Assembly: GCA_965207735.1 (NCBI GenBank)
Contig: OZ242296.1
Location: 4,160,001-4,224,000 of the forward strand
Direction of reading: 5' to 3'
From: Candidatus Versatilivorator sp.
Lineage (GTDB): Bacteria > Acidobacteriota > Terriglobia > Versatilivoradales > Versatilivoraceae
DNA length: 64,000 nt
Part shown: one piece after another, positions 1,849-56,748 of the stretch
Layout: every line of letters begins with the position of its first letter
How positions within the stretch are numbered: position 1 is the stretch's first letter
Notes under the pieces: generated by a model
Told to the model about the DNA's origin: nothing
The model's database searches: none
Seen by the model: only the letters and a program-made list of their open reading frames with translations
Position numbers and translations under genes: made by a program

Positions 1849-2065
1849 ACATGGATGGACAGGATACACAGGATTATTTGTAGAGTAGTTTCAGCGTCTT
1901 GAGTTCAACCATCGCCTGTGTTCCAACACAGATTCTCCCAAACCCGTTATCAGGCTCATCGATGCCTTCAAACACGCACCCAATCATCGGGCGAGTCCGC
2001 TTAGGGTGGCTAAGGGTGGCGGCGCGTCTCGTGCCGTTTATCCTGTTTATCCTGTGCATCCATGT
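1849..2065. mobile_element. miniature element with 26-bp terminal inverted repeats (ACATGGATG.ACAGGAT..ACAGGAT)
   Basis: 1849-1874 matches the reverse complement of 2040-2065 with 2 mismatches. Confidence 0.75.
1874..2059 (-). pseudogene. decayed, internally deleted GxxExxY (PD-(D/E)XK-type) gene
   Basis: MIGCVFEGIDEPDNGF, then frameshifted GESVLE, then MVELKTLK; these resemble the family's IIGCAFEV..ELG.GFLESVYE and IVELKAV segments. Confidence 0.65.
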
Positions 2066-2339
2066 TCAATCAGATAGAAAAACGGTTTAACCGGACAGGA
2101 TCCTAGTTCCCGACAGGTCATGGAGTCAATTGCTTCGCTCACGCCGGTCACCGTCAACCTCAATCTCAAGCGGCGATGGCGTCGGACTGTCGTTTTGGCT
2201 CGCGAGCGGATAAGCTTCATGGGACATTCACGGGTATTCGGCGACCCTGCCGGGCTCCGGACTTGTATCAAAGGTTCAGGGCTTTTGGAAACTGGAAAGG
2301 CCGAGGAATTTCGAGAACCGACGCGGGAGGATTTTCATT

Positions 2340-17362: not shown

Positions 17363-17378
17363 CGCCTGCCTGCCTGCC

Positions 17379-17480
17379 TGAAACAAAAGAAAAAAGAGTT
17401 ATCCACGAAGGGACACTAAGGCGTTGAGGTCAATCGCGACGGGATACCAAGGTCGCGAAGGGATGGTCGATTTCTGATTG
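17379..17480. repeat. dispersed repeat, TGAAACAA...AAGAGTTATCCACGAAGGG family, copy 1
   Basis: aligns with 56586-56703 over ~85 nt, apart from a 20-nt deletion. Confidence 0.85.
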
Positions 17481-17520
17481 TTTCACTCTCGTATGATCCG
17501 CCCGTCAAGGCGGCGGCGGG

Positions 17521-17558
17521 ACTCTCCACTCTCCACTCTCCACTATTCACTCTCCACT
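17521..17558. repeat. heptamer tandem repeat (CTCCACT)x~5 overlapping a stop codon
   Basis: actctccactctccactctccactattcactctccact. Confidence 0.85.
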
Positions 17559-28509: not shown

Positions 28510-29066
28510 AAAAAAGTAATCCACCAAGCAGCACGAAGGACGACGAAGAGCCACAAAGGGCTTGGAGAAAGCTCCAGAGGGATCGGCCAAGGGTCGGGAA
28601 AAAGAAAACTAACATGGAGGCGTTTGCAAAATTCGGCAGCGGGACCTTTGCCGGGAATGGCCACAAAAGGCACAAAAACACAAAAAGAACCATCGGATGG
28701 GCACGTCTCGAAATCAAGAAACTCGTTTTGTGCCTTTTGTGCTTTTTGTGGTTTCTGTTGTCTCTTGTGCTTATCGTGGTGAATGCTGGAGCCTGCAGCA
28801 CATCATCCTTGCCGCCTCAATGTCATTCCCGATTGCGATATTTGCAAAAGGCTCATCATTAACATGGATGCACAGGATAACCAGGACGGGACGCTGCTGC
28901 ACGAGAAGCCGGCTCCGGCAATGATCGTGTGCGGATTTGCGGATGCTCAGATTACAAGCCTGCCGTTTCCTGAAAAAATCCTGTGCATCCTGTGCATCCA
29001 TGTGAATCAAAACCTGTTCCGAGCCTCCATAAAACGGTTGGCTGCGGAATTTTGCAAAAGGCTCAT
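28510..29066. mobile_element. stack of nested miniature inverted-repeat elements
   Basis: CACAAAA-type IR 28661-28685/28726-28751; ACAGGAT-type IR 28862-28887/28978-29003; tttgcaaaaggctcat at 28841 and 29051; imperfect IR 28615-28640/29041-29066; degenerate CACGAAG unit ~28520-28560. Confidence 0.75.
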
Positions 29067-41356: not shown

Positions 41357-41526
41357 TGGCAAAAACCTGCGCTTGGAAAGAAATTGGATGGAGCGGTACG
41401 CTTCCAGCCGCAATGATAGGGCTTCCGCCACTCCCCCGTCAAGACGGAGTCGGGCCGCCAACCCTGCCGGGCGAACGACTCCAAGGTGGTTGATCCGGGC
41501 GCTGGGGGCGAGGGCCCGGCTTGTCT

Positions 41527-41582: not shown

Positions 41583-41830
41583 CGTGACGGCTCTGCCGCA
41601 TCGGCAGGGCTGCGGCCTGGCAACCCGGAACGACCCCCTCCAGGGGCACGTGTGATGGGAGGAGGCCCTCCCGGGAGCGCGGGGGTCCCGCCCGCATCGT
41701 CTAGTAATGCTGTCCATCCATGTTCAATAGGTGGAAAACCGAATTGGGACCAACAAACTGCTGAAGATATACTGTGAATTCGTATTCAGCGACCCGCTGA
41801 GAAATGCGGGCGTAACTCGAGAGTCCGAAT

Positions 41831-56585: not shown

Positions 56586-56748
56586 TGAAACAACAAAAGA
56601 GTTATCCACGAAGGGACACGAAGAACGACAAGGGGCCACTAAGGCGTTGAGGTGAACCGCGATGGGATTCCATGGTCACGAAAGGATTGTCGATTTCCGA
56701 TTGAACGAAGTCCATCTGTTTTCGTGTATATTCGTGTTCATTCGTGGT
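56586..56748. mobile_element. most complete CACGAA-type miniature element
   Basis: left ccacgaagggacacgaag; right ttcgtgtatattcgtgttcattcgtgg (inverted CACGAA x3); interior shared with the 17.4 kb copy. Confidence 0.7.

Follow-up and report, generated by a model that had tools for sequence, protein, structure and literature searches.

A dead GxxExxY nuclease cassette in Candidatus Versatilivorator, and the carriage of its gene-less relatives inside insertion-sequence ends

The 217-base stretch at positions 1849-2065 of the window (the whole 64,000 nucleotides of Candidatus Versatilivorator DNA analysed here) is, judged by its homology to intact genes, a dead, internally deleted copy of a GxxExxY cassette. 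The reading that we favour, at a probability of about 0.65, is that this is a twice-deleted copy of a cassette of ~470 bp, that the copies in this genus are cargo of a DDE insertion sequence (IS) and likely of an IS110 element, and that the intact cassette is likely selfish, with a nuclease predicted to cut at its arms. What is new here is direct evidence that the gene-less shells of the cassette can spread inside IS ends without the nuclease. Self-mobility cannot be read from a large number of shells, since ordinary insertion sequences demonstrably carry shells in this genus. Throughout, G000 denotes the genome of the window, and the comparison set consists of 13 congeners and 27 genomes of other genera.

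The copy at positions 1849-2065

The features of this copy, and of two further sites in the window, are collected in Table 1. The first-pass annotation of this DNA had claimed inverted arms of 26 bp around a frameshifted, internally deleted GxxExxY-like gene, and both claims are borne out, the former by the identity of the two arms (24 of 26 bases) and the latter by two pieces of DNA homologous to intact parent genes. Deleted from the copy are ~120 nt between the two gene pieces, including the codons of E40 and Y43, and the C-terminal third. A profile search without any GxxExxY similarity had been named as a result that would refute the claim. Pfam profiles give no match to the remnant and the cognate-clade HMM returns an iE of 11 genome-wide, which is no detection; DNA homology to intact GxxExxY genes is present. 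Because profile HMMs fail to detect the remnant, its assignment to GxxExxY rests on nucleotide homology.

The N-terminus MHRINRI, which had been read as encoded by the repeat itself, is found in this copy alone and owes its origin to a duplication of 10 bp; MDxQDxQD stands at this place in the family and the parents, the 5′ arm of intact parents doubling as coding sequence for that N-terminus. In the related strain X4, 10 bp are missing at 2003 relative to the window.

Within the 206-bp class, to which it belongs, the copy is divergent, with 78% identity to its best full-length paralog. Its outward flank stops short of the IS110-like end that lies 91-117 bp from the arm in 16 of the 25 family members. 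Folded as RNA from arm to arm, the element has a z score of -4.87, and none of 200 shuffles does equally well. The matching pieces in RNA sequencing runs were all of the size of an arm. The element was found at the same position after the upstream gene in 0 of 12 congeners; a related copy lies ~900 bp further along in G009, and a degenerate pair of arms ~160 bp further along in G001.

Table 1. Positions in the window of the cassette copies, their parts and the repeats around them
Feature	Position	Strand	Basis
3′ cassette arm	1849..1874	+	Arm comparison: 24/26 identical to the 2040-2065 arm
Remnant of the parent VEEKVVVELK segment	1889..1928	-	77.5% over 40 nt to L016 and L025
GxxExxY 5′ coding remnant (parent KLTRSIIGCAFEVINELGSGF)	1940..2002	-	77.8% over 63 nt to L016, E 1e-10
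10-bp imperfect tandem duplication; shifts the frame and creates the MHRINRI start	2000..2019		Alignment gap; strain X4 without the 10 bp
5′ cassette arm, tandem ACAGGAT-containing units	2040..2065	-	Sequence; 24/26 identical to the other arm
57 bp of outward flank common to the ~206-bp family	2066..2122	-	13 other copies of the flank
Composite of 448 bp between terminal repeats of the DDE IS with 43 copies	28617..29064		Repeat comparison
142-bp shell (gene start + gene end), derived from the same cassette by deletion to a shorter length	28862..29003	+	Homology to parent
Decayed single 5′ arm and start of family flank	41711..41745	-	Orthologous G002 site has full arm and family flank

Related copies in the window and across the genus

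The first-pass annotation had also placed the same arms around unrelated filler at 28862-29003. The arm pair stands (22 of 26 bases identical), and the word unrelated does not: the 5′ part of the interior is 74-75% identical over ~50 nt to the start of the parent gene, and the 26 nt at its 3′ side match the end of the parent at 85% identity. The composite that surrounds this shell further includes a module of 238 bp whose GxxExxY arms are of another type (CACAAAA). The DDE-IS ends of the composite are present, though no target duplication was found there. A short arm trace that had been reported near 41711-41728 proved to be a decayed arm, since the orthologous site in G002 retains the full arm and flank; it sits in a repeat mosaic that starts with an IS110-like end at 41523. 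When G002 is compared with the window at the three sites, the same gaps are filled with different mosaics.

G000 has 209 occurrences of the exact arm motif and none of a reversed control; all 13 congeners contain the motif too (27-433 copies each), and none of the 27 genomes from other genera does. With a relaxed motif, G000 has 243 arm ends, which give 84 adjacent arm-to-arm pairs in two main size classes of about 142-152 bp and about 192-236 bp. Once the arms are trimmed, 71 of 83 interiors match an intact parent (0 of 83 when shuffled), and most family members read MDAQDKQD...MIGxVLEVIQEPGSGF...MVELKTV.

The similarity among copies does not end at the arms. The outward flank is common to other copies at 174 of 243 arms (2 of 243 controls), and both flanks are repeated in 67 of the 84 copies, one in 14 and none in 3. 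Another repeat module lies within 400 bp of 183 of the 243 arms, against 10% at random, and 23 of 24 near-identical paralog blocks reach more than 15 bp past the arms on at least one side.

The parent gene and its product

The cognate gene is intact at one locus in G003, G005, G006, G008, G012 and G013 (G008 being placed by its right flank only), where its neighbours are what we take to be two secretion or pilus genes (gspE/gspF-like). At this home locus, G013 and G005 have shell-gene-shell arrays, and the arrays of the locus show A-rich spacers of 16-18 nt. Elsewhere the locus holds two shells (G000), one shell (G002), several shells with a nested IS mini-element (G011) or none (G004 and G001). 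A six-frame search of G000 found no intact GxxExxY gene of any type, the longest HMM span being 56 of 114. In G002, G009 and G011, which contain other GxxExxY clades, a full-length cognate gene was not found despite 154-262 arms.

The intact parent L017 matches PF13366 (E 2.7e-42) and TIGR04256 (E 1.9e-42), and the nearest named relatives of its protein belong to Candidatus Versatilivorator / Terriglobia. The model of the parent protein (pLDDT 89.6) has a PD-(D/E)XK fold. Its nearest fold match is Cas4 SSO0001 (Z 9.2, rmsd 4.3, 109 aligned), with Hjc (Z 7.8, rmsd 3.5, 88 aligned) and lambda-exonuclease matching too; TnsA does not appear in the list of 50 fold matches. Residues of catalytic type are kept throughout a set of 167 genes (E40 in 166, D79 in 166, E89 in 163 and K91 in 167). 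From its fold and the conserved D..ExK motif, the cognate product is predicted to be a PD-(D/E)XK nuclease.

GxxExxY matches were found in 34 of the 41 genomes searched, with up to 25 in a genome, and number 7 among plasmid records; no relatives were found in viral contigs (two queries) or in a phage collection. Proteins 72-80% identical to the cognate one are present in Latescibacterota, Entotheonella and Tectimicrobiota records (L151, L152 and L153), with weak arm scores of 18-24. The distribution of these three records suggests that the cognate gene moved between phyla.

Insertion sequences as carriers

G000 contains 43 copies of a 1,487-bp DDE IS (Pfam DDE_Tnp_1 and DUF772; for example C1:105789-107275), presumably IS5/IS1182-like, and 4-bp target duplications are found at 36 of them. 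That this IS carries the 142-bp shell type is shown by comparison among the congeners. G002 has two 100% identical composites of ~530 bp that extend from DDE-IS end to DDE-IS end, each with its own, different 4-bp duplication, and both carry the same shell type as the copy at 28862-29003. Two G008 copies, L360 and L367, when set against the empty sites of G000, break exactly at DDE-IS ends, with 4-bp duplications. Composites of the 142-bp type thus have the matching ends, the duplication of the same length and the exact empty site that mark a mini-element of the resident DDE IS. As for the IS itself, it has undergone a recent burst in G000, where the 4-bp duplication is also seen at 11 of the 31 small units that its ends delimit.

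For the 206-bp type, including the copy at 1849-2065, the likely carrier is IS110. There are 8 IS110 copies in G000 (G000:C1:407042 and 7 other sites), with a transposase of 468 aa in the copy scanned. Every one of them is followed by the same end motif, and in 5 there follow further tandem mini-modules with GxxExxY arm relics. Termini like those of this 8-copy element enclose 11 of 25 copies of the 206-type and 12 of 58 of the 142-type, as compared with 5 of 1000 random sites, the ends being defined by similarity to resident copies. For the CCTGAAACAA end, descent from IS1380 was weighed and rejected, the motif being located at the end of IS110 copies. The sequence after IS110 copy 2820506 looks to us like the start of a group II intron.

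The cargo relationship is demonstrated for a minority of copies and extrapolated to the rest, since 29 of the 58 copies of the 142-type, like the copy at 1849-2065, have no IS110-like end within 400 bp, and DDE-IS ends surround only 5 of the 84 copies, of which 2 have a duplication.

Tests of movement by the arms

The copies in this genus were moved not by their arms, by every test run. Target duplications at ACAGGAT arms show no excess over mismatched pairs for k = 4-9. When 60 copies of G002 were mapped to G000, they proved to be polymorphic between relatives, in line with the first-pass annotation, and not fixed in position, and the comparison yielded nine clean indels of 195-846 bp, of which none breaks at both arms. 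A search for empty sites in relatives had further been suggested. No arm-to-arm empty site was seen in the 15 G002/G000 junctions inspected of the 60 mapped loci, in 30 G008/G013 loci that include 9 candidate sites, or at three unique-flank sites traced in 6 genomes each; filled and empty pairs break at insertion-sequence ends instead. A MITE with the ACAGGAT arms as its ends was likewise rejected, in view of the missing duplication excess, the unique flanks at 3 of 84 copies and the 0 of 9 indels at arms.

The claim that in G000 a GxxExxY protein moves the gene-less shells from arm to arm therefore fails: the genome has no intact gene, flanks are shared at 174 of 243 arms and no indel falls at the arms. 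A broader form of the same idea, in which GxxExxY mobilises gene-less shells in the manner of RAYT and REPIN and made the ~84 copies, insertion sequences having landed afterwards, we regard as unlikely. It would account well for the fact that every shell retains both arms and derives from the cognate gene, and for a gene that is single-copy at a fixed locus beside shells, as RAYT is; yet the genomes just described, G000 without any intact gene and G002, G009 and G011 without a full-length cognate one, are rich in arms. Old shells with unique flanks are present, as it would predict, but they are few, both in G000 (3 of 84) and among the copies of two genomes that have the cognate gene (3 of 30). 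Insertion sequences do land on repeats, as seen in the 8 of 43 DDE-IS copies that lie within 400 bp of an arm and in one IS mini-element inside an arm in G011, whereas the 0 of 9 indels at arms and the relation of arm count to IS110-module count, which the former follows over 14 genomes (rho 0.79, kin not being independent), speak against the RAYT-like model. That arm type tracks protein clade, as described below, also agrees with a RAYT-like system.

For two of the unique-flank shells, L373 and L370, 4 of 6 further genomes each have a shell or an arm at the corresponding site. Such shells are ancestral, and may have arrived arm to arm long ago. At the L373 site, G000, G005, G006, G008, G012 and G013 have an old shell with interiors that resemble different subfamilies, which hints at gene conversion among copies.

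Intact cassettes beyond this genus

On comparative grounds, the intact cassette is likely its own mobile unit, a selfish element. Of 213 loci sampled, 192 have an intact core, and 167 were kept after removal of duplicates and short flanks. Arms bracket 139 of the 167 intact genes, as compared with 19 of 871 shifted control windows, so that the expectation of repeat-flanked intact genes is upheld. The arm repeat has a period of 8-10 nt. When each arm was typed on its own, the two proved to be of one type in 118 of 119 cases (37 when shuffled), also at type switches within a clade. A co-variation of arm type and protein clade had been predicted, and on the protein tree arm type changes 24 times against 59.9 in shuffled data (minimum 54; n = 124), which is linkage and not co-evolution: as the types were defined after seeing the data, with 43 of 167 genes untyped, as 80 loci come from one protein clade and as kin share labels, what the comparison shows is a unit inherited together, and not that the protein recognises the arms.

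Local direct repeats touch 29 of 151 genes, as against 2 of 277 controls, and triplet arrays occur in G014 and G017. Outside this genus, a same-strand stop lies within 30 bp of the 5′ arm in 47 of 84 cases and the cassette end within 30 bp of a start in 36 of 85 (counts that have no control); being flush with neighbouring stops and starts, these cassettes leave little room for IS ends. At one site in another genus, five genomes present intact, decayed, one-arm, shell and arm-less states. An exact arm-to-arm filled/empty pair for the cassette was found nowhere among the comparisons; in the genus of G029, the gene is present in 1 of 27 congener loci listed, and synteny is too poor to place the target site, and the genus of G037 is represented by a single genome. 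The intact GxxExxY gene L007 (G029:C44) has arms that face outward, opposite to the usual order.

It could be argued that the cassette has no mobility of its own, GxxExxY being a toxic defence or addiction nuclease, the arms pairing in the mRNA to hide the start codon, and all spread being passive. In favour of this, 75 of 131 genes have a reading frame that extends into the 5′ arm, the two arms form pairs as RNA and change in concert, and there is a precedent in the Rpn PD-(D/E)XK ‘transposases’, which according to the available text of PMC10400941 turned out to be antiphage toxins. We nevertheless consider this explanation about as unlikely as the RAYT-like one, because PADLOC models match only 1 of 16 GxxExxY members, weakly and as Cas4, because there is no conserved partner gene, the neighbours being varied genes at operon junctions, and because tandem arrays and long-kept gene-less shells are left unexplained. 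A Y1 (RAYT/TIRYT) transposase as the mover of the arms, these being taken for REP-like repeats, is very improbable: the repeats are hairpin-forming, clustered and intergenic, REP-like modules co-occur and TIRYT genes occur in Acidobacteria (PMC3733652, available part), but the one partial Y1 match in G000 (profile 40-121 of 121), at 2,227,208, is not among the arm positions listed, and the arms bracket GxxExxY genes across phyla.

A proposed pathway and its relation to known systems

Returning to IS carriage of copies derived from a selfish cassette, the relic copies evidently arose by internal deletion of the cognate gene at one home locus, and the 142-bp shell type has moved between DDE-IS ends, leaving the 4-bp target duplications that are seen. 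The 206-bp type would have spread between IS110-like ends, the copy at 1849-2065 having been truncated afterwards. As for the intact cassette, it is tempting to propose that its PD-(D/E)XK protein nicks or cuts a hairpin or cruciform formed by the arms, and that host repair would then copy the cassette into gene junctions, making head-to-tail arrays and deletion shells in the process. This cutting of arm hairpins, with insertion, arrays and shells driven by repair, is the weakest step of the scheme, and we would put its chances somewhat below even.

In more general terms, and just as tentatively, GxxExxY genes may mobilise an undescribed class of minimal elements (~470 bp) by means of a nuclease of restriction fold, and not by a DDE, HUH, tyrosine, serine or IS110 enzyme. 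Each clade would recognise its own 8-10-nt arms and insert at gene junctions across many phyla, leaving arrays and shells to be picked up later by insertion sequences. If it is true that GxxExxY moves its own cassette, this would be a new transposition chemistry. The arms are, in any case, a concrete candidate substrate for a widespread family without an assigned function.

Mini-elements of insertion sequences that carry cargo (PMC3184786) and IS110 modules (PMC12288879) are, by the accessible portions of these papers, already known kinds. Our DDE-IS composites are like the MITEs and cargo mini-elements of PMC3184786 in being short, non-autonomous units with a resident transposase's terminal repeats and target duplications; they differ from what that source describes in the parts available in that the cargo is the relic of an arm-bounded nuclease cassette, whose ACAGGAT arms are not transposed ends and have no target duplication. 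The modular transposition of ISPpu9, of the IS110 family, into REP sites (PMC12288879, in part) is similar in that small modules in tandem, sharing the same end motifs, come after an IS110 copy. The modules described here are known from sequence alone, and carry GxxExxY arms and relics, unlike those of ISPpu9, which carry a small RNA gene.

REP/REPIN-RAYT and TIRtron-TIRYT, as presented in the text of PMC3733652 that was available, resemble the cassette in having a small enzyme gene at a fixed locus with inverted repeats, many gene-less copies and local tandem arrays. The enzyme of the cassette, however, is of PD-(D/E)XK type and not HUH/Y1, its shells are deletion derivatives of the gene, and in this genus they spread inside IS ends. 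The Rpn/YhgA genes (PMC10400941 and PMC5350276, available parts) are likewise small, horizontally moving PD-(D/E)XK genes once taken for transposases; they have an internal antitoxin domain, whereas GxxExxY proteins are of about 120-150 aa and their genes have inverted arms around them.

The PDDEXK_3/GxxExxY family (PF13366, TIGR04256), to which the intact parent belongs, appears in PMC3424549 under ‘Unknown’ and with ‘multiple transfers’; the accessible part of that paper does not mention arms, clade-linked arm types, arrays or shells. No account of arm-bounded GxxExxY cassettes was found in open-licence PubMed Central and bioRxiv text (supplements and subscription papers lying outside this scope), including the available parts of 10.1101/2021.01.26.428298, PMC3424549, PMC12085832 and PMC9756366.

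Repeat mosaics and other small nuclease genes

The repeat mosaics in these genomes are assembled from nested IS ends together with relics of the nuclease gene. Within the window, positions 17376-17540 and 56606-56747 are further mosaics, in which IS110-like ends occur with GxxExxY arms of the CACGAAG and CACGAAT types. The G002 region orthologous to window position 17500 (L318-L321) has an insertion of ~18 kb that starts exactly at the IS110-like junction motif, and whose first gene is presumably integrase-like.

A separate palindromic repeat family, with 166 copies, is found at positions 596-830 of the window and at about 2,217,000-2,218,400 of G000:C1. One cluster of these repeats brackets a small gene, at a place where G002 has a GxxExxY cassette inside DDE-IS ends. 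Because this gene, which we take to be DUF559-like, is thus bracketed at the site of a G002 cassette, other small nuclease genes may share the anatomy of the cassette.
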